From assembly GCA_944325225.1 (NCBI GenBank), contig CALUZQ010000004.1, forward strand, positions 579-64,578: a stretch of 64,000 bases of DNA, read 5' to 3'. The DNA comes from an uncultured Elusimicrobiales bacterium. Its GTDB lineage: Bacteria > Elusimicrobiota > Elusimicrobia > Elusimicrobiales > Elusimicrobiaceae. Below are positions 21,541 to 35,320 of this stretch, one piece after another (positions within the stretch are counted from its first letter, which is position 1; each line of letters begins with the position of its first letter). A program made the position numbers and the translations under genes. A model generated the notes under the pieces. It made no database searches, had not been told where the DNA came from, and worked only from the letters and a program-made list of their open reading frames with translations.

Positions 21541-21564
21541 AAAAAGCCCCGGACGGGGGCTTTT
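21541..21564 (-). terminator. Displaced original tRNA-Ser terminator
   Basis: AAAAGCCCC..GGGGCTTTT hairpin immediately downstream (minus strand) of a CTCTCCGCCA tRNA 3'-end copy. Confidence 0.7.
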
Positions 21565-21689
21565 GAAATGGCGGAGAGCTGAATTTCCCTAGCCAAATGC
21601 TCTTTTAGTTGTTACTCTTTCTCCCTGCATAACAGGGAGAAACAGGGAATAAGGATATCGTATTTTCTCTAATTTTGTATATTATAAAT

Positions 21690-22238
21690 ATGAGATTAAA
21701 TAGAAATAACATTTTTTGCGGGTCTTCTTTTTCTCCAAGGACAAATTTACCACAAAAGTTCCAACAGACAAATCGAGAAGAAATTTTTGTTAATTCTTTT
21801 CTAAAAGCATATATTAAAACTATTCGTTCTTCTTCTATATTTATAAAAGAAACAGCAATACCTGGTCTAGGTATTGCTGATGTACTACACTGTGCGGGTG
21901 TAGAAAAGAACAAAAGAGTTATTACACGTATTCGTGGAATTATCGCTTTCGAGATGAAAATAGGAAAATGGAAACAGGCTCTTACACAATCTCATAAATA
22001 TTCTTATTTTGCAGATAAAGTAGTCGTGGTCCTTCCTGCTAACAAAACCCATGCAGCCTTACAGAATATACAATGGTTTAAAGATCTAAAAATATCTCTA
22101 TGGAGTTTTGATTCTAGTACTTCAAAGATAACTAAGATTTTTGATCTAAGAAGAAACACTGCATCCTCTATTAGGGAACGCAAACGAGTTGTTGAAAAAA
22201 TAAAACAAATTACAACTCCACCAACTCCTTCAAATTAA
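21690..22238 (+). CDS. PD-(D/E)xK nuclease-like protein
   Basis: E..IPGLGIADV...IAFEMKIGKWKQALTQ..KY..FAD catalytic pattern; start uncertain. Confidence 0.65.
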   Translation: MRLNRNNIFCGSSFSPRTNLPQKFQQTNREEIFVNSFLKAYIKTIRSSSIFIKETAIPGLGIADVLHCAGVEKNKRVITRIRGIIAFEMKIGKWKQALTQSHKYSYFADKVVVVLPANKTHAALQNIQWFKDLKISLWSFDSSTSKITKIFDLRRNTASSIRERKRVVEKIKQITTPPTPSN

Positions 22239-23409
22239 TAATTGCTTGTTTCATATTTTCCAATATAGAAAAATTTAAAGGGTCTTCTAATCGTTGGTTA
22301 TATTTTTTAATTAAAGCAATAGAGTTATCCAATCTAGCACTCATATTTGATATATTAGAGGAAATGTCGTTTGTTAAAAATTGGTTAGATAAATACTGTA
22401 ATGTTTCCCATGTTTGTAAAGATTCGTTGGCAGGATCTTCTAGTTCTGGAGATCCTTTACGATACAAAATATCTGTTTGGGAAAATCCATTCATAACTTC
22501 AATATCAGAAAAAAAACTTCTTAAAATATTCAGATCAGTAATTTTCAGTCTTAATTGAAGTTTAGAACTTAAATATCGGTGCACCCTCTTTCCCCCACCT
22601 TTTCGTACTGTTGGTTGGAATGTGCTTAAAGAAAAACGTTTTTGACTTGAAAATAAACCGGTCGCCCCGCCATATGCCCCTACCATAGCAAATAATGGAA
22701 TATAAATATCTGCGTAGCCAATAATCACATTAAATTCTGCATTTTGGAGCACATATATTAGATACAGCAAATTGGTAAGTTGCTTGGCAGAAAAAAATAC
22801 ATCTTCTCCGGTCTTACAATTAAAATTAACAACAATATAGATTCCATTAACCTTGGGTTCTTGATTTAAAATCTCAGAAATGAATTTTTTTATTTCTGGT
22901 AAAGAATCAAGCGCTTCTATAGAAACTGCCAGGGTCGCAAATAACTGTTGGTTTTCATATCTTTTCTGCTGCCAGATTTCCCCAGATATGGCTATAAAGT
23001 TTGCTGCCTTTCCAGCTGAGGTAGAATCAAAACTAGATTTTACAAAAATATTAGGAGCCAGCAGCGTAGTAAATCCTTTATCCAGTTCATAATCAATAAC
23101 TTCATTAATGCAAGCTTCAATATTTCGTTCTCGAGAGAATTCTTTTTCATCGTGCTTGCAAAAATAAGGATAATTTATCAGGTTTTTAAGTCTCCAATCT
23201 GGCTCAATGGGACACGTACTAACATAAACTTGTGGATCAAATAAAAAAATCTTATTAGTAGATAAAAAATGTCCTTTAACTTCATCCAGTACTTCATCTT
23301 TGATATCTCGGGGACTAAAAATAACTCCATCAATAAAATTCTTTTGCATAGCGGTAAGCGTCTTCTTTGCCGTAGCATCCCCATATCCATGTTGAGCAAA
23401 TATTTTCAT
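22210..23409 (-). CDS. Uncharacterised 399-aa protein (possible TIM-barrel fold)
   Basis: Start reassigned to ATG overlapping the kinase stop (ATGA); motifs FAQHGYG, GVIFSPRD, FDPQVY; no recognised family. Confidence 0.7.
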   Translation of the reverse strand: MKIFAQHGYGDATAKKTLTAMQKNFIDGVIFSPRDIKDEVLDEVKGHFLSTNKIFLFDPQVYVSTCPIEPDWRLKNLINYPYFCKHDEKEFSRERNIEACINEVIDYELDKGFTTLLAPNIFVKSSFDSTSAGKAANFIAISGEIWQQKRYENQQLFATLAVSIEALDSLPEIKKFISEILNQEPKVNGIYIVVNFNCKTGEDVFFSAKQLTNLLYLIYVLQNAEFNVIIGYADIYIPLFAMVGAYGGATGLFSSQKRFSLSTFQPTVRKGGGKRVHRYLSSKLQLRLKITDLNILRSFFSDIEVMNGFSQTDILYRKGSPELEDPANESLQTWETLQYLSNQFLTNDISSNISNMSARLDNSIALIKKYNQRLEDPLNFSILENMKQAIINLKELVEL

Positions 23410-24281
23410 AAGGATTTTAGCTCCTCTTTCAATTTTGTTATATTCCCTGAACGTAAATTTGAATCTTTTTTCAACAATCGAGCAAGAAAACAAGAAAACT
23501 TTTCGCTAATATCAGTTCTTAATGTACATAATAGCGGACATCTGTTAGGTCCCAGCAGTTCATTAATATTTTTAAAATAAGGCTCGCCAAGAGCATATGA
23601 GAAAACAGTATATGCAGCGCAGTATAAATCAGTTCGATAAGTAACAATTTGATGGTAATCAACTGCAAATAATTCTGGAGCAGCATAGGCATTAGTTCTT
23701 GGAGACATCATCCCTGTTGCAGTCAAAGAAGAAAGATTGGGATCTGTTGTTAATGCAATACTAAAATCGATTAACACAAAAGTTCGTGGTGAAATGTTTT
23801 TTATAACATTTCCAGGTTTAATATCACGATGTACCAAGTGAGACAATGAGGTTTCTTCAATTGCATTTAGCAAACAATTTAAAAGATTTTTTAATTCTTC
23901 TTCTGAAGGGACATAGCGTTCTTGCATTAAATCCTGTAAAGATTTTCCTGGCAGATACTCCTCTGAATAAATCAAAAATTCTACATCATTAATTTTTTTG
24001 ACATGAGGCTCTATTTGTCCTAACTTAACAATATAGGGAGAAGTCAGCTTAGTGAGAGAATCTATTTCTCTAAAAGCTCGCAATCTAATAGAATCGTCCT
24101 GTTGTAATAAGTTTAAGTGGCATACTTTTATTGCTTCCCAACGTCCATTCACTAGGGCCTTATACACAAATTTAGATCCGCCCCAAGAAATTTTCGACAG
24201 ATTACTAATAACGGGGAGAAGATTTGGTAATTGAGAAAATACAGTCTCAAACCACATATTTAAAAAATTACTATTTACCAT
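23406..24281 (-). CDS. Stand-alone Hanks-type Ser/Thr protein kinase
   Basis: WGGSKFVY Gly loop, EAIK, alphaC Glu (FREI), HRDIKPGN, DFS, YAAPE, TDLY; no TM or sensor domain. Confidence 0.92.
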   Translation of the reverse strand: MVNSNFLNMWFETVFSQLPNLLPVISNLSKISWGGSKFVYKALVNGRWEAIKVCHLNLLQQDDSIRLRAFREIDSLTKLTSPYIVKLGQIEPHVKKINDVEFLIYSEEYLPGKSLQDLMQERYVPSEEELKNLLNCLLNAIEETSLSHLVHRDIKPGNVIKNISPRTFVLIDFSIALTTDPNLSSLTATGMMSPRTNAYAAPELFAVDYHQIVTYRTDLYCAAYTVFSYALGEPYFKNINELLGPNRCPLLCTLRTDISEKFSCFLARLLKKDSNLRSGNITKLKEELKSL

Positions 24282-24355
24282 ATAAAAATTTTATAATTAT
24301 ATCAATATAATTAATTATACAATTATAGTCTCAGAGAAAAATATTTAATTGTATT

Positions 24356-25111
24356 ATGCAAATTAAATTCCTATTGAAGCGTTTGCGGGGAGTAAATATT
24401 CATACCCATCCGCCATATAAAGTGGTCACCAGCGGGCGGACATTGGAAAATTATCCTGCTGGATACAGAAAAGTATCGTCGGAATTAATCTTTTTGGCCC
24501 GGGCAATTGTTCTTAACCAAGATTTTGTCCAATTTGTAAGAAACTTCCGTCAAAAACATGGCTTACCACCTGAAGGATTTGAAGCAGGCCCCTGTCATTT
24601 CATACTTAGAGATAAAAAACACAAAAAACTCGCTAAATTAGCCCAACAAGTACAATGGGATTTAATTGCCAGTAAAGTACATGGAGATTATTCTGTCCAT
24701 CCGCTTCTAAAACCCCATTTTTTCTCTATTGTATGGTGTAATACCATTGAACACCATATAGAACCGATTTCTATCTACTACGCCACGTCTGAGGACCCTC
24801 AGCTAGAAATCCACATTACCCACGATGTCAAATTTTCAGAACTAATTGGATTTCTCCGCGCCAAGAAAGCAAATATTGAAGACAATTTAAAAGAATTATC
24901 CTCAAAATATTTCACAAGAACCAACCTGGAAAATATTCGTTTACTTAGTTTACAAACTAAACGGATGACAGAAACAGATTTATTTGAAAGAGCTCAAAAA
25001 GACAAAGTATTAAGGAAATTAATCCCAAATTTAACCACTGATGCCTTCCACAAAAGATGTGGCCGGGCTAGAAAACTCGTTAAAAATCTCTTCATAACCA
25101 AAAGGACATAG
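24356..25111 (+). CDS. Hypothetical island protein (possible C-terminal DNA-binding helix)
   Basis: 251-aa ORF divergent from the kinase; basic helical C-terminus. Confidence 0.55.
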   Translation: MQIKFLLKRLRGVNIHTHPPYKVVTSGRTLENYPAGYRKVSSELIFLARAIVLNQDFVQFVRNFRQKHGLPPEGFEAGPCHFILRDKKHKKLAKLAQQVQWDLIASKVHGDYSVHPLLKPHFFSIVWCNTIEHHIEPISIYYATSEDPQLEIHITHDVKFSELIGFLRAKKANIEDNLKELSSKYFTRTNLENIRLLSLQTKRMTETDLFERAQKDKVLRKLIPNLTTDAFHKRCGRARKLVKNLFITKRT

Positions 25112-25187
25112 TTTGCCTCTTTTCGTGTCCTCGTAAGGTACCTCTGTTATCGCTATACTGTGTTATATTCCAATAACGGAGGTAAAT

Positions 25188-26438
25188 ATGAAAATTGAAA
25201 ATATCCCTGTCGAAAGACTTAAAGCTTATTCTCGCAACACACGCATACATTCGCCCAAACAAATAGAACTATTAGCACGAAGTATTAAAGTCTTTGGGTT
25301 CAACAATCCCGTATTAATTGATAAAAACAATGTTATTTTGGCAGGACATGGCCGCGTCCTAGCAGCCCGGAAATTAAACTTAAAATCAGTTCCCACGGTA
25401 AAAATTGAACATCTCACCCCGCTTGAACTAAAAGCGTTTCGGATAGCGGACAACCGAATTGCCGAGCAAAGCAGCTGGGATAAGGCCTCCCTAAAACTGG
25501 AATTTCAAGAGTTAGCCTCATGCCAGGATGAAATGGATATCAATTTAACGGGTTTTTCCACCCCGGATATTGATTTGCTTTTCCTGTCCGAAATAAATAC
25601 TTCAAAAGAAGAAACTTTGGACATTCCCCTTGATATCCCAAAGCGCGTCAAACCGGGCGATTTATGGAGTTTAGGCAGGCACCGCCTTTTTTGCGGCAAT
25701 GCGCTGGAATCCAGTAGTTACCGAGAGCTCTTGGGCAATCAAAAGGCCGATATGGTATTTACTGATGCCCCCTTTAATGTAAAAACAGACGGACATATCT
25801 GCGGAAACGGAAAATATAAGCATAAAGACTTTGCCATGGCTCATGGAGAGATGACTCCGCAAGAATTTACCAATTTTCTCTCGCAAACATTCAAAAACTT
25901 GATTCAATTTTCAAAAGACGGATCGCTCCATTTTGTATGCATGGATTGGCGGCATATTTCCGAAATATCCACAGCAGGCAAGGCCTATACTGCTCTTAAA
26001 AACATCTGCGTATGGGATAAACAATGCGGCGGAATGGGCTCTCTGTATCGCTCCCAACATGAATTTTTCTTCCTGTTCAAAAATGGTAACGCCACCCACA
26101 TTAATCATATCGATTTGGGGAAATATGGACGGAACAGAACAAATGTATGGAGTTATCCCGGCGTGAGGGTTTCCAATCCCGTAAACCGAAACGACTTAAA
26201 ATTCCATCCAACCGTTAAACCCGTAGGAATGATCGCCGATGCCATTTTGGACGTTAGTAACATTGGAGACATCGTTCTTGATTGCTTTGCAGGGAGCGGA
26301 TCCACATTGCTCGCCTGTGAAAAGACGAATCGCAAGGGCTATATGATGGAAATCGAGCCGCACTACTGCGACGTTATTCTATATCGCTTTGAACAATTAA
26401 CAGGCCTAAAAGCCAAATTTGAGGAGGTACTCGCATGA
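25188..26438 (+). CDS. ParB N-terminal domain + beta-class N4/N6 DNA methyltransferase
   Basis: ParB motif FGFNNPVLID...AGHGR; FTDAPFNV (motif IV), HPTVKP, DCFAGSGST (motif I); RBS GGAGG. Confidence 0.9.
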   Translation: MKIENIPVERLKAYSRNTRIHSPKQIELLARSIKVFGFNNPVLIDKNNVILAGHGRVLAARKLNLKSVPTVKIEHLTPLELKAFRIADNRIAEQSSWDKASLKLEFQELASCQDEMDINLTGFSTPDIDLLFLSEINTSKEETLDIPLDIPKRVKPGDLWSLGRHRLFCGNALESSSYRELLGNQKADMVFTDAPFNVKTDGHICGNGKYKHKDFAMAHGEMTPQEFTNFLSQTFKNLIQFSKDGSLHFVCMDWRHISEISTAGKAYTALKNICVWDKQCGGMGSLYRSQHEFFFLFKNGNATHINHIDLGKYGRNRTNVWSYPGVRVSNPVNRNDLKFHPTVKPVGMIADAILDVSNIGDIVLDCFAGSGSTLLACEKTNRKGYMMEIEPHYCDVILYRFEQLTGLKAKFEEVLA

Positions 26439-26755
26439 CATTACGTATCAAATATAGACCTTATAAAGTGGGACCAGGACATCCGCCAAAAGAATTTCAG
26501 TTCAAACCCGGACAATCGGGTAATCCCAAGGGGCGGCCAGCAAACAGCCGAACGATGTATTCTCTTATGAAAGAAGAGTTCGGACGTATGGTAACAGTAA
26601 GCGACGGAAAACAAAAAAGCGAAATTGCAGCCAAACAAGCCCTGGCTCGTAAATGGCTGCATGACGCTTTGCGAGGCGACATCAAAGCTTCAGAAATCGT
26701 ACTGAAATTTTTAACACGGGAAATGGACTCAGATCACACCTCCTTGCCAATTTAA
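26435..26755 (+). CDS. DUF5681-type protein
   Basis: YKVGPGHPP...QFKPGQSGNPKGRP signature; ATGA overlap with the MTase. Confidence 0.8.
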   Translation: MTLRIKYRPYKVGPGHPPKEFQFKPGQSGNPKGRPANSRTMYSLMKEEFGRMVTVSDGKQKSEIAAKQALARKWLHDALRGDIKASEIVLKFLTREMDSDHTSLPI

Positions 26756-26780
26756 GGAATATGGGATCCTTAAACTCATT

Positions 26781-26985
26781 ATTCGGACAGAAATTTGTCG
26801 TTTCTGTCCGAATTTGTTTTAATAGAATTGTAGTATCAAATTTGTATGACTCGTTTTGGAGCCGTAAAGGCAACGATTTAGACGAATTTATCGTCTAAGT
26901 GGTGATCAAACCAAGATGAGGTCATGGTTTTGCTGTGCCCAACCGGGTACGGCGGCGATGACCCATTTCTGAGCGTTTGATCACC
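26781..26985. repeat. Cluster of three inverted repeats
   Basis: 13-bp perfect IR 26781-26813; 8-bp perfect IR 26878-26898; 85-nt multi-stem hairpin 26901-26985. Confidence 0.85.
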
Positions 26986-27031
26986 CTCAAAGTGCGGTCG
27001 TCGCTTTTTTATACCCTCTTTTTGATAAAAA

Positions 27032-27064
27032 CGACCAACCTTTGTCGCTGAATAGAGTTATAGT
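27032..27064 (+). promoter_or_regulatory. Putative WYL-regulator-dependent promoter
   Basis: CGAC-N8-GTCG dyad; TGTCGC-N10-TA-N3-T arrangement with -10 TATAGT (27059-27064). Confidence 0.55.
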
Positions 27065-27088
27065 ATAACTAGCTCAACAGGAGGGTTC

Positions 27089-28288
27089 ATGATTACAAAA
27101 GCGAAGTTAGACAATCTGGAACAAGATTCAAAATTTCAAAAACTGCATACTATTCAGAATCGCTTCAATATCTTCTCTACCTTAAACATTGAACATTTTG
27201 AAATCCGCCACTCAAACGTATTGGCCTGGCTGTTAAATCCAACAGAAACACATCAACTTCAAAATCAACCTTTATGCCTGTTTTTAGATATTCTGAGGGA
27301 AATGCATATTGATGTCGCTCCGACTTGCTCTGCTCTTGTAAAACGGGAAAAGAAGCTTTCCAAGACCAATCAAATTGACTTATTACTGTACCTAGACAGC
27401 GGGGAAATTATCGCTATTGAAAATAAAGTAAAGTCCGGAGAGGGACATAATCAGCTCAAACGATACAGAGAATCTCTGGAGAAACTATATCCTCATACAA
27501 AAATACATTATTTGTTTTTGACCCCGGCCGGAGACTCCCCCAAAACAGATGACGAAGATAAGTGGAAGTTTGGAAGTTATGATATTGTCACTAAAATGTT
27601 AACCAGTTTACTAGAGAAACAAGACTTATCGGTGGACAGCAGAGTATTTTTAGAACATTACTTAGAAACAGTTAAAAGAGAGGTCCTTATGGATAGAAAA
27701 GAAACAGAAGAATTATGCACGCAATTATACGCAAAATATCCAGAAGTATTTGATGCTGTTATGGAATATAAGCAAGACATTCAAACTCAAATTAAGTGTT
27801 TTTTAGAAACTGCTCTAAAAAATACTTGGAATCAAGAGTTTATATTAGACCGAGCATTCAAGAACAGTATCACATTCTATATTCGAGATTTTGAAAATTT
27901 TGCGTGCTTACAAATTGATGAAAATGTAGATTATGGGGGTTGGAAACAACCCAAAAACGCGCTTACTTTTGAGTTTAAAGTCCAAAATGGAAATTTAATA
28001 CTAAAATTAATGATTTTGGCCTCTAAAAAAATTGGATTTAAAGAATTCTTATTAACAAAAATTCAAAAGAATCCTCTATTTGAAAAAGGTAAACAAGGAA
28101 ATAAATGGGAACGCCTCGTAGAAAAAACTGTTTTGGAAAAAGAAAAATATGATAATGTGGTAAATATCCAGTATTTAACAGATTGTATTGAAAAATTTAT
28201 GGAAAACTTTCTCCAAGGTGCATATATACAAATAAAGGAAGATTTGTTACAAATCTGCCAAGACTATGAAAGAGAAAACGCTCAATAA
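27089..28288 (+). CDS. PD-(D/E)xK nuclease family protein (PDDEXK_4-like)
   Basis: EIRHSNVLAWLLNP, IDLL...IAIENKV...QLKRY, LFLTP. Confidence 0.85.
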   Translation: MITKAKLDNLEQDSKFQKLHTIQNRFNIFSTLNIEHFEIRHSNVLAWLLNPTETHQLQNQPLCLFLDILREMHIDVAPTCSALVKREKKLSKTNQIDLLLYLDSGEIIAIENKVKSGEGHNQLKRYRESLEKLYPHTKIHYLFLTPAGDSPKTDDEDKWKFGSYDIVTKMLTSLLEKQDLSVDSRVFLEHYLETVKREVLMDRKETEELCTQLYAKYPEVFDAVMEYKQDIQTQIKCFLETALKNTWNQEFILDRAFKNSITFYIRDFENFACLQIDENVDYGGWKQPKNALTFEFKVQNGNLILKLMILASKKIGFKEFLLTKIQKNPLFEKGKQGNKWERLVEKTVLEKEKYDNVVNIQYLTDCIEKFMENFLQGAYIQIKEDLLQICQDYERENAQ

Positions 28289-29186
28289 ATTAACCCGTAC
28301 CATTTACCTGCTTAACGTATTGGACAGCGGGAATATTGATATTCCCCGCGAAGCGGAAGAACTCGGCGTAACGGTGCGGACGATTCAACGGGATATTCTT
28401 AATTTGGAAGCGGCCGGAATCCCGCTCTATAAAGTTAAACCGGGAACTTATAGTTTTACGGAAGGCTTTTCCCTAAAAAAATTACAATTATCCAAGGAAG
28501 AACTTTCCGCGCTCGTGTTACTTTTAGAATTGGCCAGGCCGTTTGGCTCTAAATTTGAAAATTTAATCTCTAATTTAAACCAACGGCTTATATGTCCTCT
28601 AGAGGAATCCCCGTATTATTTCCAAATCGCCTCTTCGGCTTATGAGAAATCCGCCGTCACGCAGGCGCTGGAACAAGCAATCCATACCCATACGGCAGTA
28701 TATTTAACATTTGCGGCGGATCCCACTAAAAAATTAAATTATTATCTGCAGCCGCTCAAATTACTGCATTCTGGCGGATTTTGGTATGTGTTCGGTTTAA
28801 ACGACCGGAAACAAATTAAAACTTTGCGTTTGGACCGTATTTTGGAGATAAAAAACACGCAAGATGCTTTTACCCCCTCCAAAACAGCCTTAGACGCCTT
28901 AAAAGCAAGTACCAGCGTATTCTTTAACGAACGAGTAAAAAACCGCGTAATTTTGAAAATTGAGACAAATATTGCCTCTTATTTTGAAAAACGGAACTAT
29001 TTTCCAAGACAAAAAATCGTAACCAAACATTCGGACGGAAGCCTAACGCTTGAAACAACCATATCCCAAGACGAAGAAGTCTTGCTGCCCCTAATGCCTT
29101 GGTTGCCGCATATCCATATTGTAGAACCCATCTCTTTAAAGCATACACTGCACAACACGCTAAAGAAATATCTTCAGCAAGATTAG
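28266..29186 (+). CDS. HTH-WYL-WCX transcriptional regulator
   Basis: N-terminal wHTH ELGVTVRTIQRDI; WYL domain P..L....GFWY...R..RLDRI; C-terminal WCX-like region. Confidence 0.92.
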   Translation: MKEKTLNKLTRTIYLLNVLDSGNIDIPREAEELGVTVRTIQRDILNLEAAGIPLYKVKPGTYSFTEGFSLKKLQLSKEELSALVLLLELARPFGSKFENLISNLNQRLICPLEESPYYFQIASSAYEKSAVTQALEQAIHTHTAVYLTFAADPTKKLNYYLQPLKLLHSGGFWYVFGLNDRKQIKTLRLDRILEIKNTQDAFTPSKTALDALKASTSVFFNERVKNRVILKIETNIASYFEKRNYFPRQKIVTKHSDGSLTLETTISQDEEVLLPLMPWLPHIHIVEPISLKHTLHNTLKKYLQQD

Positions 29187-29233
29187 CTTGACTATCCCTC
29201 CCTACGTAAGCGGTAATATACGTGGGAGGGAAT

Positions 29234-29638
29234 ATGAAAACACCCCATACGCTGACAAATAAACAATTATGCAAAGCTTGGGCTATGTACGTCAAAAAAC
29301 CAATGCCCAAGCTGCGCAGATCTTTGCTGGTTAGATATATTGCCTGGTATAAACAAGCGTACGAAGACAAAATCAATATTAAACACTTCTTCCGGCAACT
29401 CACTCAAACACAAGAAAATATAAATCAATACAAACAAAAACAACCAAAGGAAAAGACTTTTTCCGAGGGAACCTGTTTCATACGCTCTTATAATGGAAGC
29501 CAATACAAAGTGGAAGTCATTCCAAACGGGTATTTGTATAGCGGACAAACCTACAAGAGCTTATCCGCCGTCGCACGCAAAATAACAGGCAAGCAATGGA
29601 ATGGAAAAGTCTTTTTCGGGGTAAAAAATGCAAGATAA
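29234..29638 (+). CDS. DUF2924 domain protein
   Basis: GT.FIRSYNG...V.V...GY.YSGQTYKSLSAVARKITGKQWNGKVFFG; overlaps recombinase start. Confidence 0.85.
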   Translation: MKTPHTLTNKQLCKAWAMYVKKPMPKLRRSLLVRYIAWYKQAYEDKINIKHFFRQLTQTQENINQYKQKQPKEKTFSEGTCFIRSYNGSQYKVEVIPNGYLYSGQTYKSLSAVARKITGKQWNGKVFFGVKNAR

Positions 29639-31259
29639 ACCTATTCGCTGCGCCATTTATACGCGGAAATCCTCAGAGGAGGGGCTGGAACAAGATTTTA
29701 ACAGCCTTCAAGCCCAGCGAGAAGCTTGTGAAGCTTATATTAAAAGCCAAAAATCAGAGCATTGGGTCCTGATTTCCACGCCCTACGATGATGGCGGATA
29801 TTCCGGAGGGACGCTGGAACGCCCCGCTCTTCAAAAACTCCTACAAGATGTCCGGTTGGGACAAGTTGATATTATCGTTGTCTATAAAATTGACCGATTG
29901 ACACGCAGTTTAATGGATTTCAGTAAAATCATAGAGGTATTAGACGCCAGCCAAGCATCTTTCGTATCCATTACCCAACACTTCAATACCACGACCAGTA
30001 TGGGCCGATTGACGCTTAATATGCTTCTGTCTTTTGCGCAATTTGAACGGGAAGTAACTGCCGAACGGATCCGGGATAAATACGCCGCCAGTAAAAAGAA
30101 AGGTATGTGGATGGGCGGTTATCCACCTTTTGGATATGAACGCAAAGATAAAAAGCTCTTTCCTCATCCGCAGCAGGCCGCCGTATTAATCTCGTTGTTC
30201 AAACAATACTATGCGTTAAAAAGCGTCGGAAAACTGTTAGATTGGGTACGCGCTAACAACATCCAAACCTCTTTAGGGAAACCCTTTACCAAAATTAATT
30301 TGCATCGTATTTTATCCAATCGGGTCTATATCGGAGAAGTGGGCCATAAAGGAATATGGTACCCGGGATTACATCAGGCATTAGTGGATAGGGAGTTATT
30401 TAACTCTGTTCAAGACATTATTACGGAACACCAAGTCAAACGCACCTATCACGACACCCACCCCAGTTTTTTAGCCGGAAAACTGTTTGATGATAAAGGT
30501 AATCGGATGAGCCCCAAAGCAAGCGGTTCCGGCAACAAGAAACGGCGATATTACACGAGCCAAGCTATGATTAAGCAAGAAAGGGAAAAACTGGGCGCTA
30601 TTACGCAAGTTCCGGCAGGAGAACTGGAAAATTTTGTTACCCAGCGCTTAAAAGAAATCTTAAATGCTCCCTCATTTTTAACCCCGCTTCTCTCGGATTA
30701 CCATATATCCCTACAACAAGATGTAATAGCAAAAATTCCTCAGCTTTCCATATCCACAGAAATAAGAAAATTACTTCTGGTAAGAGTTGATTTGACCCCT
30801 AATACGTTAAAACTGACCATATCCCCAGCCCAACTAAAAGAATTTTTGCTTTCTATGGCAGAAAATAGACCTTGCAAAACGCTTACATATGACAAAAATA
30901 CCCTGCAAACCTTTGAATACCCTTTCCAAATTAGAAGGGCCTGCAAAGGAAAAAAGATTATTTTAGGAACTGAAAATCCTATCCCTAATTATCCCAAAGA
31001 ACCATTAGTTAGAATTATTTGTCAAAGTTATACTTTGCGGGAAAAACTCTTCTCCGGCAGGGCTTCCTCTATTTTAGAGTTGGCAAAACAAGAGGGTTGC
31101 ACAGACAGTTATATGTCCCGGCTTTTAGAAATATCCTTCTTACCCGCTAAAACCATTTTGGATATCCTATCCGGTACTTCAAAAGAGGTTTTAAGCGTTA
31201 AAGATTTACTTAAGTTAAAAAACGACCGAAGGCTGTCGCAACGCTTATCTAAACTATAG
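29628..31259 (+). CDS. Large serine recombinase (integrase)
   Basis: CAIYTRKS (catalytic Ser), DDGGYSGG...RPAL, VYKIDRLTRS, FAQFERE, recombinase domain YIGEV. Confidence 0.93.
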   Translation: MQDKPIRCAIYTRKSSEEGLEQDFNSLQAQREACEAYIKSQKSEHWVLISTPYDDGGYSGGTLERPALQKLLQDVRLGQVDIIVVYKIDRLTRSLMDFSKIIEVLDASQASFVSITQHFNTTTSMGRLTLNMLLSFAQFEREVTAERIRDKYAASKKKGMWMGGYPPFGYERKDKKLFPHPQQAAVLISLFKQYYALKSVGKLLDWVRANNIQTSLGKPFTKINLHRILSNRVYIGEVGHKGIWYPGLHQALVDRELFNSVQDIITEHQVKRTYHDTHPSFLAGKLFDDKGNRMSPKASGSGNKKRRYYTSQAMIKQEREKLGAITQVPAGELENFVTQRLKEILNAPSFLTPLLSDYHISLQQDVIAKIPQLSISTEIRKLLLVRVDLTPNTLKLTISPAQLKEFLLSMAENRPCKTLTYDKNTLQTFEYPFQIRRACKGKKIILGTENPIPNYPKEPLVRIICQSYTLREKLFSGRASSILELAKQEGCTDSYMSRLLEISFLPAKTILDILSGTSKEVLSVKDLLKLKNDRRLSQRLSKL

Positions 31260-31272
31260 AAAAGGAGAAAAT

Positions 31273-32028
31273 ATGACTATATACAACCATTTTGTCCCCA
31301 CAGGGATTAAATCATTAGATGCTGAAATCGGCGGTTTAGAAATAGGAAAACTCACTTTCGTAACCGCCACACCACGCCAAGGGAAAACGGCCTTTATCGC
31401 AAATGTAATAGCAAATACGGCAGTTTCCCAACACATTCCAACAGCGTTTTTCTCCATAGAAATAGGGAAAAACAGTTTATTTGAACGACTAGCAGAAAAA
31501 TTCTGCAATATTAAAATTGCACAGTTAAAAGAGGGATATTTCTCCAAGGAACAATACCAGAAGATCATTCAACCAACATTAGAGAAATTACAAAAATCCG
31601 CCTTGTATATTGATGATACTCCTGCCATTGACATAGAAGAAATTTGCCGAAAAACCCGCCGGCTGCATAAAGAATTGACTCAAACAGATATAAATCTTAA
31701 ATTACTAGCCATAGATTATTTTCAGTTAATTAAAGGGGCCCAAAAAGACACAAATCATATATTGGGCAAATTGCGCGAACTGGCCCAAGAATTACAAATT
31801 GCCGTATTAATATCGGTACAATGCAAACAACAATTTACAGGGAGTCCCTCTAATTTATTAGATTTACTTCCTGCTTCAATGCAAATATTTTCTAATGAGT
31901 TATTGATCTTTATCCAGAAAACTCAACGAGAAAACGAATTACATATCGTGTTCCATAGTAAATGTTCTATACGCACACAACTAAATGTACACTTCAACCA
32001 AGAATGCGGAATAATTACCGACAAATAG
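31273..32028 (+). CDS. Truncated DnaB-like helicase C-terminal (RecA-fold) domain
   Basis: TGIKSLD..IGGL, Walker A ATPRQGKT, FFSIE, LYIDDTP, IDYFQLI; lacks DnaB N-terminal domain. Confidence 0.8.
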   Translation: MTIYNHFVPTGIKSLDAEIGGLEIGKLTFVTATPRQGKTAFIANVIANTAVSQHIPTAFFSIEIGKNSLFERLAEKFCNIKIAQLKEGYFSKEQYQKIIQPTLEKLQKSALYIDDTPAIDIEEICRKTRRLHKELTQTDINLKLLAIDYFQLIKGAQKDTNHILGKLRELAQELQIAVLISVQCKQQFTGSPSNLLDLLPASMQIFSNELLIFIQKTQRENELHIVFHSKCSIRTQLNVHFNQECGIITDK

Positions 32029-32037
32029 GATATTATT

Positions 32038-32853
32038 ATGTGTGATTCTATCCAAAATATCATCCAAGAATACAATCAAAAACTACAAAACACATGGCAC
32101 CCTGTTGAACACAAACAAGGAGGAATCCCTTGCCCCAGCCAGAAATTAAAAGAGTTTTTTGTGGAGTTTGTTCCCGGGGAGTGTTATATCTTTATAGGAA
32201 GCCGCCACTATATGGCGCTTGAACACTTTCGGACGTGGCTTTTATGGCATTTTATACATCAGTCCATAAGCATTGGAATACGAAGCACCCATATAACCCC
32301 TCAAAAAGATTTTCAGTGGTTATTGTCTTTAGAAAGCGGATATTCCTTTCAAAGTCTTTCTTCTCTGGAAAAAGCTGATATTACACAACAGGAAAATATC
32401 CATAAAGCCATACAAACATTATCTACAAGCAGATTAGAGTGGTGTAGTGCCAAAACGCCTATTTATAACAATATGCATGACATTTATTTCTTTTCTCTGT
32501 CATTACAAGAATGGAAGGAAGAGCATTGTTTTATCTTGCCAAAATTGGCTAAACGCTTACAAAAACCGATTTTTGTATTTGTATATATGGATAAACAAAG
32601 AAATAATGCTTTAGGTAATCCATATTACCTAAATATAGATGATTTATACGATGAAAACAACTACCGTTTTTCTTCAGAATATGGGGATTATATTGGATTC
32701 GTATATCCAAGCTGGCCTATGTGGAAGCACTCTTGGTTGGAAGACAATACTTCTGACATCACTCTTAACATCCAAGATTTAAGGAAAATCCGTCAAAGAC
32801 TTTGTGTGTTTCAAATAGATAATATGCAAAGGTTGGTAGATTACAATATATAG
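32038..32853 (+). CDS. Highly degenerate DnaB-like protein (Walker A lost)
   Basis: GGIPCP..KL...FVPGECYIFIGSR aligns by eye with DnaB GIPTG..LD...PGELIIIAARP; GKT absent. Confidence 0.5.
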   Translation: MCDSIQNIIQEYNQKLQNTWHPVEHKQGGIPCPSQKLKEFFVEFVPGECYIFIGSRHYMALEHFRTWLLWHFIHQSISIGIRSTHITPQKDFQWLLSLESGYSFQSLSSLEKADITQQENIHKAIQTLSTSRLEWCSAKTPIYNNMHDIYFFSLSLQEWKEEHCFILPKLAKRLQKPIFVFVYMDKQRNNALGNPYYLNIDDLYDENNYRFSSEYGDYIGFVYPSWPMWKHSWLEDNTSDITLNIQDLRKIRQRLCVFQIDNMQRLVDYNI

Positions 32854-32870
32854 AGAACAAATTTTATAAG

Positions 32871-33325
32871 TATGGTTCTGACGGCCTAACAGATTATGTA
32901 CTCACAAATAATATCGCCCAAATATCAGACGATACCCAAAAGACTTTATTTACCGCAGATGCGATTACCTGCGCTAAAAACAAATTTCTCCAACAATGGC
33001 TAAATGGCTGATGCTGATTGCGCAAGCGCAAACACTTGCACATCTACCCCCCACTGATAAGGCATTTAAATTGTTGGGACAAGGTTGGGTGGCGGAGGAA
33101 ACGCTGGCAATCGCCGTTTATTGCGCTCTCAAATACAGCAACGATTTTGAAAAAGGCGTTTTAACCGCCGTTAATCACTCCGGCGACAGCGATTCTACCG
33201 GCAGCGTAACCGGACAAATTCTGGGAGCGTATTTGGGTTTTGAAGCAATTCCTCAAAAATATATTGAACCACTGGAGTTAAAAGAAATAATTTTAAAAAC
33301 GACTGATAATCTAACAAGAAAGTAA
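32871..33325 (+). pseudogene. ADP-ribosylglycohydrolase remnant
   Basis: Startless fragment QISDDTQKTLFTADAI, then in another frame [11 protein letters not shown]...[21 protein letters not shown]; the middle of the gene is missing. Confidence 0.8.
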
Positions 33326-33366
33326 AAATAACCCTCTCTATTTCGTTTGATATAGAATGCGCTAGT

Positions 33367-33930
33367 TTATAGTTTATTTTCTTCCTTTAGCTTACTAACA
33401 TGTTTTTGCAAGCAACCCTCTATTTGAAGATAGCGTAAAACAGCTGATTTACTCAAATCATAACTAATATTGGAAGCGTATTCCTTTAACTGGTTAATAG
33501 CGGCTAGATAATGCTCATTCACCACCAATTCGAGCAGGATTTGAAGTTCTCTTTGCAACTGCAGTTGAACATCCTTTACGGCTTGCAGGGCATTATATTT
33601 CGCTCCTGTTCTAGATACTTTTACTACCGGACTCCACAACATATAATTTTTTTAAAAATGAGGAAAATGTTTATCAATATAGTCTTTATCTTTTTTAAAC
33701 TTTTGAATAAATTTATTTGCTGTATTGGGCTGACTAGTTTTTGTGTTTACATATTGTAAACCTTGAACATGCGCTGCCACTTCACAAACATATATAGTAT
33801 TTTCAGCCATTTTCAGACCGATAACGTCTATTTCAGTTTGATGAGGGCCCTTCACGTTATATTCCACAAAATTGCATCCTTTAATATAACGTAACCATTC
33901 TCCAGTTATTTCTTCTGCTACATTATGCAT
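33367..33930 (-). pseudogene. PD-(D/E)xK nuclease-like gene with internal nonsense codon
   Basis: 92-aa and 91-aa ORFs are in the same frame, separated by a single TAA (33652-33654); AEE...TEIDVIG...CEV pattern. Confidence 0.7.
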
Positions 33931-33951
33931 AATTAATTTTTCCTAATCAGT

Positions 33952-34935
33952 TTAGCAATAGTCATCTATTCCATCAGATCCTTGCCAGACTAAGCCTCTA
34001 TCAAGAGTCACTGTTTTTTCAGCTCCATTTCTTTCAAAAAAAGAACCTAATGATATATGAACAAACCCCTTATCAAATATAATTTTTGATGCTGACCACG
34101 GTTTCATATTTGTCTCATTGAAACAAATAATCCAAATAGTATTATTATCCTTTGATATAATAAAATCTTCTAAAATAGACTCATAATGTTTATTTTTACA
34201 GAAAACCTTACCCTTTTGGAGATTTTGAGCATAACCTAATAATGGATTCTCCCTTTCCACATTCATAGGACAAAGAGGAAATTCCGAAGGGATGTGCCAA
34301 TCCTTTTGAAAAGCTCCTGGCGTTAAAGAAACTATTCGAGAGTCTATTACTTGAGGTTGTTGCTCCTTTAGGTCTTTAAAAATCCAATCCCCCATAGTTC
34401 CTTTTGGAGTAGTATGTTCTTTAACTCGCCAACGTTCCATATTGTGCAAGCAATTAGCGGCCTCTTCCCTCGTTACTGTTCGCATCCAATTGAAATTAGA
34501 GTCTTCTTTACTTAGAGGCAATAACTTTGGATTTTCTAAAAACGCCTCTATGCTACCACAAAGATATTCTATTTTTTTACATGTATAAGGATTTTTAAGT
34601 ACATTTTCCAACCGGCTCAACCATCGAAGGTTCTCGGGGCGATTATTGCGCCGATTTGTATCTATATGATCAACTACATCTTCCTTATTGCGAGGAACTC
34701 CATGAAAGGCAGTAGCAACAATTCTGTGAACTCGAACAGAAACTATTTCCATATAACCTGTTAAGGCATTTGGCCTTCCAAAAGTCCATTGATTATCTAG
34801 AGGGCGCACACGTTTTCCTGGTCGGGCATGACGCATTACAGCGCCATTATCCCGCACCGAATAATGCTCGCCTTCATATATACATTCTGCTTCTTCACAA
34901 AAATCATCTACACTTACGCGGCTCATAATGCTCAT
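33952..34935 (-). CDS. HNH endonuclease with uncharacterised C-terminal domain
   Basis: VHRIVATAF...VVDHIDTNRRNNRPENLRW HNH signature. Confidence 0.85.
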   Translation of the reverse strand: MSIMSRVSVDDFCEEAECIYEGEHYSVRDNGAVMRHARPGKRVRPLDNQWTFGRPNALTGYMEIVSVRVHRIVATAFHGVPRNKEDVVDHIDTNRRNNRPENLRWLSRLENVLKNPYTCKKIEYLCGSIEAFLENPKLLPLSKEDSNFNWMRTVTREEAANCLHNMERWRVKEHTTPKGTMGDWIFKDLKEQQPQVIDSRIVSLTPGAFQKDWHIPSEFPLCPMNVERENPLLGYAQNLQKGKVFCKNKHYESILEDFIISKDNNTIWIICFNETNMKPWSASKIIFDKGFVHISLGSFFERNGAEKTVTLDRGLVWQGSDGIDDYC

Positions 34936-35062
34936 TGTATATCAAATATATAATACAAGCAACAAATTTCCACTTCTTTTTTGGCAAACAGAGCATCATA
35001 AGCGCTTTTTACCATTGTACCGCCTCTAAACCGTCATTTAGAGCAGACTTTAGTGGAATAAC

Positions 35063-35104
35063 GCAAAATACCCCGACGAAAGAATTTTCCGTCGGGGTAT
35101 TTGC
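35063..35104 (-). terminator. Island-supplied hairpin downstream of tRNA-Ser
   Basis: AAATACCCCGACG / CGTCGGGGTATTT inverted repeat ~20 nt past the tRNA 3' end. Confidence 0.65.
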
Positions 35105-35126
35105 TCTAAAGGTTATAAAAAAGATA

Positions 35127-35213
35127 CGGAGAGGGAGAGATTCGAACTCTCGATACGGTTTCCCGTATGCAGTCTTTCCAGGACTGTGCCTTAAACCGCT
35201 CGGCCACCTCTCC
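35127..35213 (-). tRNA. tRNA-Ser (GGA)
   Basis: GGAGAGG/CCTCTCC acceptor stem, CAGTC-CTGGAAA-GACTG anticodon arm, long variable arm, GTTCGAATC; no encoded CCA. Confidence 0.96.
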
Positions 35214-35320
35214 AAAAGGTTGTGCGGACTAAGTACCTATTTATTATAGCAAATTAATTTTTAGCTTGTATATTTTCCGACGATAAAATAAAAACGCTCC
35301 GGAGCGGAGCGTTTTTATTT

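Follow-up and report, generated by a model that had tools for sequence, protein, structure and literature searches.

A 13.5-kb island at the 3′ end of a tRNA-Ser gene in an uncultured Elusimicrobiales bacterium and its tRNA-associated lineage of large serine recombinases

Introduction

A rule of thumb given in the Islander paper holds that only tyrosine integrases use tRNA genes (PMC4383910). Here we analyse a stretch of 64,000 nucleotides from an uncultured Elusimicrobiales bacterium (GenBank assembly GCA_944325225.1, contig CALUZQ010000004.1; hereafter the window), which carries a 13.5-kb integrative element at the 3′ end of a tRNA-Ser(GGA) gene. The only recombinase found in this island with Pfam and PHROGs is a large serine recombinase (LSR), and a large serine recombinase very probably inserted the island where it now stands. 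An initial annotation, made from the sequence alone, had proposed this reading, which is supported by empty sites, by a family-wide link between LSR and tRNA genes and by elements with the same end in other hosts.

Islander-type islands resemble the present one in that they insert at tRNA 3′ ends, rebuild the tRNA, leave a displaced fragment at the far end and carry adaptive or defensive cargo. The tDNA fragment of tyrosine-integrase islands is typically tens of bp long. In contrast, the tDNA duplicated here measures 7 bp, functionally at most 5 bp, and no open reading frame (ORF) of the island gave a PF00589-type match to a tyrosine integrase.

Canonical serine integrases, such as those of Bxb1, PhiC31, Listeria A118/LI and TP901-1, share with the island's LSR the Resolvase and Recombinase domains, a catalytic serine in a YxRxS motif and the fold. 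Short attachment sites, with little identity between the site of the element (attP) and that of the host (attB), and a 2-bp crossover are probably common to both. However, canonical enzymes target protein-coding or intergenic sites, whereas the clade described here would target tRNA genes. The clade is further set apart by the lack of cysteines in its zinc-ribbon-like hairpin and of an obvious long coiled coil, by an extra C-terminal helical domain, by an obligate DUF2924 neighbour and by a conserved motif that lies some 45 bp out in the P′ arm (P and P′ being the element-derived arms of the attachment sites).

Among named phages the closest LSR is that of AcaML1, a temperate phage of Acidithiobacillus caldus (Gp4-Gp3-Gp2; JX507079), with 43% identity over the N-terminal two thirds. 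In both systems a small gene stands directly upstream of the recombinase gene, which reads towards an element end abutting a tRNA-like 3′ end (the AcaML1 record begins with CCACCA). AcaML1 differs from the 13.5-kb element, which has no virion genes, in being a complete phage of 59 kb, in having its recombinase annotated as two ORFs for a large and a small subunit, and in its target, which is transfer-messenger RNA (tmRNA) and no tRNA. Its attB is listed as 'srrA', which we read as ssrA, with repeats of 10 bp (PMC3826726); the same paper does not mention that the integrase is a serine recombinase. The LSR homology, the ssrA attB and the CCACCA at the start of the record together indicate that AcaML1 belongs to this family, published but not remarked upon as such. 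We found no description in the literature of tRNA targeting by serine integrases.

Phage satellites, elements like the phage-inducible chromosomal islands (PICIs) and tycheposons offer a third comparison: they share with the island a size of 8–14 kb, association with tRNA genes, a site-specific integrase, packaging-type genes without a capsid and swappable defence cargo. However, PICIs and most tycheposons use tyrosine integrases (an LSR is present in 27 of 937 tycheposon-type elements), and the present copy has no large terminase (TerL).

Element boundaries and empty sites

The tRNA-Ser(GGA) gene was called by ARAGORN on the minus strand at 35126–35214 (coordinates are window positions unless another contig is named; Table 1). 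Read on the tRNA strand its 3′ part is ...GAATCTCTCC-CTCTCCG, which comprises the T-arm, the 3′ strand of the acceptor stem and the discriminator base G73; the tRNA is intact through position 73, and TAT (TATCTTTTTT) follows where CCA would stand. The same 7 bp, CGGAGAG on the plus strand, recur at the left end of the island, where the junction reads GCCCCGGACGGGGGC-TTTTGAAA-TGG-CGGAGAG-CTGAATTT, or on the tRNA strand CTCTCCG-CCA, then a hairpin with a U6 tail. Both halves of what the initial annotation had described, a tRNA-Ser ending in CTCTCCG without CCA and a distant CTCTCCG-CCA with hairpin, are thus present. GC content is 33–44% exactly between the two 7-mers, against about 50% outside.

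The 7-mer occurs five times on the plus strand of the window and is not significant alone, and a search of the element ends found no terminal repeat longer than 7 bp. Both facts would fit a chance match, with the true ends lying elsewhere or the low-GC block being no discrete insertion. We located the window flanks in chicken-gut metagenome runs and read empty sites from contigs there. In run X4, a 206-nt contig consists of window positions 21556–21578 followed by GGAGAGATTCGAACTCT; it represents an empty site, from a strain whose upstream sequence diverges over 130 nt, and it matches exactly the junction ...GAAATGG-CGGAGAG-GGAGAGATTCG... that had been predicted for a strain without the island. 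In run X11, a 1435-nt contig has AAAAAGCCCCTTGAGGGGGCTTTTAAATGG, a variant of the left-flank hairpin ending in AAATGG, directly abutting CGGAGAG and the tRNA. Both contigs thus read ...AAATGG-CGGAGAG-GGAGAG, and in both a homologue of the hairpin that now lies 13.5 kb from tRNA-Ser adjoins the tRNA. In X11 the depths of the empty-site contig (6.7) and of a second alternative left neighbour (12.7) add up to about that of the right flank (20.3). Empty and occupied alleles were found side by side in the same samples.

In these two contigs the flanks meet precisely at the 7-mer, a contig from an independent assembly (L169) stops exactly at ...CTCTCCG, the GC step coincides with the 7-mers, and the same left end meets four different flanks at the same base (see below). 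The empty-site contigs refute a chance match, to which we assign next to no probability. Although the 7-mer alone is not significant, the boundaries are fixed by the GC step, the empty-site contigs and the end of L169: the element is the 13.5-kb interval 21579–35126 at the 3′ end of tRNA-Ser(GGA).

Other searches for empty sites were negative. Runs X5 and X6 were uninformative or occupied, and no empty site of this species itself was present among 175 loci fetched. An exact-protein look-up with the right-flank ORF (476 amino acids as first delimited) gave no match, and look-ups with the 449- and 177-amino-acid right-flank gene calls returned occupied or truncated contigs only.

In other samples the same tRNA-Ser end is occupied by variants related to the present element, by a sister element family with the P arm GGGGATTTATGCTAATAATTCAAAACTAAAA and, in three runs, by a further neighbour ...GTAGCAAAAAA, which may represent either a further element or a CCA-less flank. 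The presence of different sequences at one tRNA end across samples makes this site a hotspot. As separate observations, at least two other sequences, with P arms ...AATTCAAAACTAAAAA and ...GTAGCAAAAAA, were seen at the 35127 end in runs X1, X3, X8, X11 and X20 (chicken or bird gut), and run X1 contains a junction ...GGGTTATAAAGTAACA-CGGAGAG-CTGAATTT that could belong to a variant element, as its attP or as a tandem junction.

The LSR family and tRNA 3′ ends

A family set was compiled from 80 genome loci and 80 IMG/VR loci (n = 160) encoding LSR homologues of 39–99% identity. In 52 of the 160 loci a tRNA gene lies on the opposite strand within 1 kb past the LSR stop codon, mostly at 240–560 bp, with its 3′ end facing the LSR; two loci have a same-strand tRNA in that interval, and the remaining 1.79 Mb holds only 20 tRNAs. 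The density is 0.39 tRNAs per kb in the 1-kb interval versus 0.011 per kb elsewhere in the same loci, a 35-fold difference, and when only genome loci with enough downstream sequence are counted the tRNA is present in 43 of 76. The link of the LSR clade to tRNA 3′ ends holds throughout the family. The window has the arrangement of the clade, with tRNA-Ser(GGA) on the strand opposite the LSR and the element end at the tRNA 3′ end.

The targets comprise four serine isoacceptors (27 loci), Gln (14), Met (5), Asp (4), Ile (1) and Thr (1), and the tRNA-linked loci span Elusimicrobia, Alpha- and other Proteobacteria, Acidobacteriota, Melainabacteria-type gut bacteria and others. A conserved tRNA-Ser target, as proposed by the initial annotation, is therefore correct for this locus but not as a family rule, given the use of Gln, Met, Asp, Ile and Thr tRNAs and of ssrA in AcaML1. 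LSRs that are 97–98% identical are located at different serine isoacceptors, and pairs with 83–88% identity at tRNA-Asp or tRNA-Ser. DUF2924 is encoded immediately upstream of the LSR in 153 of the 160 loci, while the ParB-methylase is present in 78 and DUF5681 in 72. Many of the IMG/VR contigs (L081–L160) are only 4–10 kb long and encode the ParB-methylase, DUF5681, TerL, DUF2924 and LSR, with an intact attP next in at least eight; such contigs may be excised forms of small capsid-less elements. Family elements were also seen on two contigs labelled Clostridia (L002, CAKSUD010000012.1) and Muribaculaceae (L015, CAVKWQ010000047.1), the latter with the same tRNA-Ser(GGA) 3′-end sequence as the window; both are probably mis-binned.

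The family data bear on the proposal that another enzyme inserted the island, be it a tyrosine integrase that has since disappeared or works in trans, or the product of an unassigned ORF, and that the LSR is a passenger or resolvase. Integration at tRNA 3′ ends is the hallmark of tyrosine integrases (PMC4383910), and several island ORFs have no family assignment. However, no Phage_integrase match was obtained anywhere in the island, the repeat of at most 7 bp is unlike the tDNA fragment expected of tyrosine-integrase islands, the adjacency of LSR and tRNA recurs across phyla with LSR and DUF2924 as the sole constant genes, and intact attP sites immediately follow the LSR gene in the putative excised-form contigs. 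We reject a lost or trans-acting tyrosine integrase because of the missing integrase, the short repeat and the recurrent LSR-tRNA adjacency, and regard insertion by any enzyme of another kind as highly improbable. We infer that the LSR catalysed the insertion.

In the mechanism that we propose, the island's own LSR, made together with the DUF2924 protein encoded by the overlapping gene, would insert the element into an attB formed by the 3′ end of tRNA-Ser(GGA). The recombining sites would be attP ...GGTTATAAAAAAGATA-CGGAGAG-CTGAATTTCCC... and attB ...GAAATGG-CGGAGAG-GGAGAGATTCGAAC..., which have 7 bp in common, and the LSR would require only a 2-nt staggered cut, placed at the GG that adjoins the discriminator base on its inner side. 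The tRNA would be rebuilt through position 73 from the final bases carried by the element, while the encoded CCA and native terminator would be shifted 13.5 kb and the element would give a U-rich trailer and a strong hairpin instead. The tRNA would then presumably be matured by 3′ processing and a CCA-adding enzyme, like other CCA-less tRNA genes here.

Attachment sites and crossover

Mismatches between junctions of related elements narrow the position of strand exchange. L001, from a further species of Elusimicrobia, has an element at the same tRNA whose LSR is 99% identical. There the left junction is ...TTCAAA-CGGAGTG-CTGAATTT and the right junction ...AAAGATA-CGGAGAG-GGAGAG; the T/A difference at position 6 of the 7-mer segregates with the right-hand arms, which places the exchange within CGGAG. 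The sister family, with LSRs about 50% identical to that of the window, is found at tRNA-Asp (CGGAGTCGACG / CGGAGCCGACG) and at tRNA-Ser (CGGAGAGGGAG or CGGAAGGGGAG) with P arms that are almost identical at either target; there are tRNA-Asp and other tRNA-Ser ends that have CGG and GATTCGAAC in common. In L054 only (A)CGG is common to the two junctions. Identity between sites therefore ranges from 7 bp here to 5 bp in L001, 3–4 bp in L054 and 8 bp in proteobacterial attP sites, and the mismatches in L001 and L054 together point to a crossover in CGG. The short core proposed by the initial annotation stands, but not its length of 7 bp, since the identity that matters is shorter.

Symmetry was assessed in ten attP-type sites, nine located directly after an LSR gene (eight IMG/VR contigs and L034) and one being the left junction of L056. 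Four of the ten (L094, L115, L126 and L134) read AGACT-N7-GG-N7-AGTCT, and the summed dyad score at GG over the ten sites is 77 versus about 55 expected by chance, with offsets of +6 (74) and +20 (78, a GC-rich palindrome) scoring about as high. From the segregation of mismatches and the attP dyad symmetry, the 2-nt stagger is probably at the GG of CGG, corresponding to tRNA positions 72–71. The proteobacterial attP sites contain a GCGAAC box 15 nt from the GG, and the T-arm TCGAAC of the tRNA lies 12 nt away.

A further motif lies in the P′ arm, far beyond a normal LSR half-site. Its general form is CCCTG-N4-5-CAGGG-N5-7-CAGGG-AAT, an inverted plus a direct repeat about 36–46 nt inside the arm, and besides the window it is found in L006, L016, L034, L054, L056, L090, L092, L094, L099, L115, L126, L134 and L147, so that it is conserved from Elusimicrobia to Alphaproteobacteria and in IMG/VR contigs. 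It may be a binding site of DUF2924 or of the extra C-terminal domain of the LSR.

The recombinase and its DUF2924 partner

The LSR matches PF00239 (Resolvase) at residues 9–161 and PF07508 (Recombinase) at residues 181–267, and R13 and S15, within YTRKSS, are invariant among 61 homologues. An AlphaFold2 model (predicted confidence, pLDDT, 80) contains a helix at 125–157 followed by an alpha/beta domain at 170–268. In Foldseek searches of the PDB the model matched Bxb1 (9iu2, 2.4e-17), PhiC31 (9rah, 1.7e-13) and the LI integrase (4kis, 4.3e-12), aligning to Bxb1 and PhiC31 across 445–559 columns. No Zn_ribbon_recom match was obtained, and there is no cysteine at residues 270–330 or in that part of the family consensus, which reads SLLxGxLFDxxGNRMTP...RYRYYVSQ. 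In the place of the zinc ribbon the model has a beta-hairpin (293–311), thereafter only short helices (330–383), and an extra C-terminal helical domain (458–542).

The DUF2924 and LSR genes overlap by 11 nt on the same strand and are translationally coupled. The AlphaFold2 model of the DUF2924 protein (pLDDT 86) had no significant neighbour in the PDB (best E 0.24).

A bolder reading of these features, which we put forward only tentatively, is that the DUF2924-LSR clade is a mechanistically distinct class of serine integrases that reads conserved tRNA gene ends. The target read would be the discriminator base, acceptor positions 71–72 and the T-arm TCGAAC, and the reading would be done by the zinc-less DNA-binding hairpin and the extra C-terminal helical domain. 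The attP would mimic the target by carrying the last 3–8 nt of the tRNA, to which proteobacterial members would add the GCGAAC box, and a few base changes in attP would retarget the enzyme, which fits the presence of 97–98% identical LSRs at different isoacceptors. DUF2924 would bind the CCCTG/CAGGG motif and control direction or synapsis, replacing the missing coiled coil.

Distribution and state of the element

Four host flanks that are unrelated to one another, those of the window, L001/L170, L002/L171 and L172, adjoin one and the same left end (CTGAATTTCCCTAGCC...). Near-identical elements (LSR 98–99%), also without TerL, occupy this tRNA end in three further host backgrounds, and the identical LSR is present on 11 contigs from several samples. 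A pattern scan of Joint Genome Institute (JGI) metagenomes for the left end added three more attL junctions but no attP, and such a scan of IMG/VR gave no match. The element has spread to several hosts and may still be active and able to pass from cell to cell.

Several observations weigh against insertion by the LSR at the tRNA end as outlined above. The distance from LSR to tRNA is 3.9 kb with cargo in between, compared with the usual 0.25–0.55 kb, and single-sequence dyad analysis of the element's own attP and attB found no symmetry above chance. Searches of Logan contigs of runs X1–X4, JGI metagenome contigs and IMG/VR found no circular attP junction or excision product of this element, and hence not the circular junction AAAGATA-CGGAGAG-CTGAATTT predicted by the initial annotation. 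In L002 (15490–15600) the right end does not meet the tRNA but runs via CGGAGTG into the left end of another, related element, a tandem that is not expected under strict attP × attB chemistry and that suggests that an attR may be able to serve as a pseudo-attB. Finally, as modelled, the LSR has neither the four zinc-binding cysteines nor an obvious long coiled coil, so that mechanistic details of Bxb1 and PhiC31 may not transfer.

The missing circular junction would also fit a decayed, immobile remnant, that is, an island inserted by the LSR but since stranded by terminase loss and cargo build-up as a fixed defence island. This variant gains from the TerL of relatives, of which neither gene nor remnant was found in the window (tblastn E > 0.8), from the ADP-ribosylglycohydrolase fragment in the island and from the fact that every contig with this exact LSR has the island in place. 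On the other hand, both LSR and DUF2924 are intact and retain every family-invariant residue, near-identical copies that also have no TerL are present in at least three further host backgrounds, and individual samples contain empty and occupied alleles together. We consider a stranded remnant possible but doubtful, and retain the reading of an LSR-inserted element. It may be a satellite or mobilisable element; relatives with TerL look like capsid-less satellites.

Gene content of the island

Island ORFs were scanned with Pfam, PHROGs and PADLOC (Table 1). The Pfam and PHROGs scans agree with the gene content first listed (LSR, DUF2924, ParB-methyltransferase and DUF5681) and gave no match to capsid, portal, tail, conjugation or tyrosine-recombinase genes. 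The element consists of a conserved backbone (ParB-methylase, DUF5681, DUF2924 and LSR) and two variable slots with putative anti-phage cargo. The candidate defence genes are a PD-T4-6-like kinase operon, whose kinase matches the model almost over its full length (profile positions 17–271 of 292), and a PDC-S26 nuclease/WYL pair, whose nuclease matches at full length (PADLOC profile positions 7–395 of 400) and occupies variable slot 2, the place of TerL in relatives.

In those relatives the 1.6–2.5 kb between DUF5681 and DUF2924 encode the large terminase (Terminase_6C/6N; Terminase_6C 1.6e-12 and 2.2e-13). TerL appears to have been lost from this copy, which does not have the set of small and large terminase genes that a satellite with its own packaging genes would carry, and keeps the ParB-methyltransferase, DUF5681 and HNH genes. 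Between DUF5681 and the PDC-S26 nuclease, where the terminase of relatives begins, there is a 334-nt ORF-free gap (26756–27088), and homology of this region to L001 stops at about 27062. The ADP-ribosylglycohydrolase ORF is conserved in L001 and L002 and is for this reason either the remnant of an old gene or a small domain that stands alone.

Table 1. Features of the island and its junctions (window coordinates; aa, amino acids).
Feature	Position	Strand	Remarks
Original tRNA-Ser intrinsic-terminator hairpin, B arm of attL	21542..21564	-	-15 kcal/mol, U6 tail (folding)
Displaced CCA (TGG on plus strand)	21569..21571	-	directly before attL 7-mer
attL copy of CGGAGAG	21572..21578		crossover probably within CGG
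P′ arm, left end of element	21579..21622		same sequence joined to four different host flanks
Arm motif CCCTG-N5-CAGGG-N5-CAGGG	21623..21647	+	44 nt inside 7-mer; unique in window, 0 expected by chance
182-aa ORF, variable cargo slot 1	21690..22238	+	no Pfam/PHROGs/PADLOC match; called gene in L161; absent from L001 and L002
399-aa hypothetical protein	22210..23409	-	no family match; 4-nt overlap with kinase gene
Ser/Thr protein kinase, PD-T4-6-like	23406..24281	-	Pfam Pkinase 4.2e-23; PADLOC PD-T4-6 8.7e-27
251-aa hypothetical protein	24356..25111	+	conserved in L001 and L002
ParB_N-domain and N6/N4 DNA methyltransferase	25188..26438	+	Pfam; PHROG 498 1.4e-113
DUF5681 protein	26435..26755	+	Pfam 5.6e-21; directly before TerL in relatives
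PD-(D/E)XK nuclease, PDC-S26	27089..28288	+	PDDEXK_4 5.4e-26; PDC-S26 7.7e-73
HTH-WYL-WCX transcription regulator	28266..29186	+	profile searches
DUF2924 protein	29234..29638	+	Pfam 9.4e-31; 11-nt overlap with LSR start
LSR, 543 aa	29628..31259	+	Resolvase 1.5e-38, Recombinase 1.6e-12
DnaB_C/RecA-like ATPase, 251 aa	31273..32028	+	profile searches
271-aa hypothetical protein	32038..32853	+	no match
ADP-ribosylglycohydrolase C-terminal fragment, 109-aa ORF	32996..33325	+	profile 206-286 of 287 only
Two small hypothetical genes, 91 and 92 aa	33367..33930	-	also in L001-L004 and L009
HNH_3 endonuclease	33952..34935	-	Pfam 3.4e-15; PHROG HNH
Element-supplied hairpin	35063..35104		22 nt downstream of tRNA end; folding
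P arm, right end of element, ...GGTTATAAAAAAGATA	35105..35126		identical in L001 and L002
attR copy of CGGAGAG	35127..35133		tRNA positions 73-67
tRNA-Ser(GGA)	35127..35214	-	intact through discriminator base; without encoded CCA

Consequences for the tRNA

The exchange of terminators that had been proposed is supported by folding, which gives both hairpins, the native one at the left end and the element's beside the tRNA; a simple consensus terminator scanner flagged neither. The element-supplied hairpin reaches -27.3 kcal/mol (z = -7.25) on the tRNA strand and -24.1 kcal/mol on the plus strand and is followed by AUUUUG, and sister elements with 50% identity keep its equivalent. It appears to be the new terminator of tRNA-Ser, and is probably also a terminator for the rightward genes of the element.

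The displacement of an encoded CCA might be taken for a functional lesion. We rejected this, as tRNA-Leu(CAA) (1688–1773) ends in ...CCCCGGTA followed by AGATTT and natively has no CCA, and neither have the flanks of relatives' tRNA-Ser: no CCA stands in the flank that was displaced from this tRNA end in L001/L170 and in L172. An encoded CCA is thus not universal in this genome, and the CCA-less tRNA-Leu and displaced flanks together imply that the organism must add CCA post-transcriptionally. Such addition to the products of CCA-less tRNA genes is established tRNA biology. The displacement of the CCA here is real but probably neutral.

Implications

The locus is best described as a serine-integrase island from a lineage of integrases directed at tRNA gene ends. 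Together with the 52 related loci it contradicts the rule that restricts tRNA genes to tyrosine integrases, and points to a serine-integrase lineage that uses tRNA ends. In chicken-gut Elusimicrobia the tRNA-Ser end is a contested hotspot, with at least two different insertions as well as empty alleles, at which elements would shuttle anti-phage genes.

Serine integrases are preferred for the insertion of large DNA because their sites are short, no host factors are needed and the reaction runs in one direction, but their natural sites are idiosyncratic. The present family offers integrase/att pairs whose attB is already present in most bacteria, uncultured gut species included, and the range of its targets (Ser, Asp, Gln, Met and tmRNA) forms a natural series in which the re-programming of target choice can be studied. 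If the clade does read tRNA ends in the manner tentatively proposed above, nearly every bacterium would already possess a native landing pad for some member of this enzyme family.

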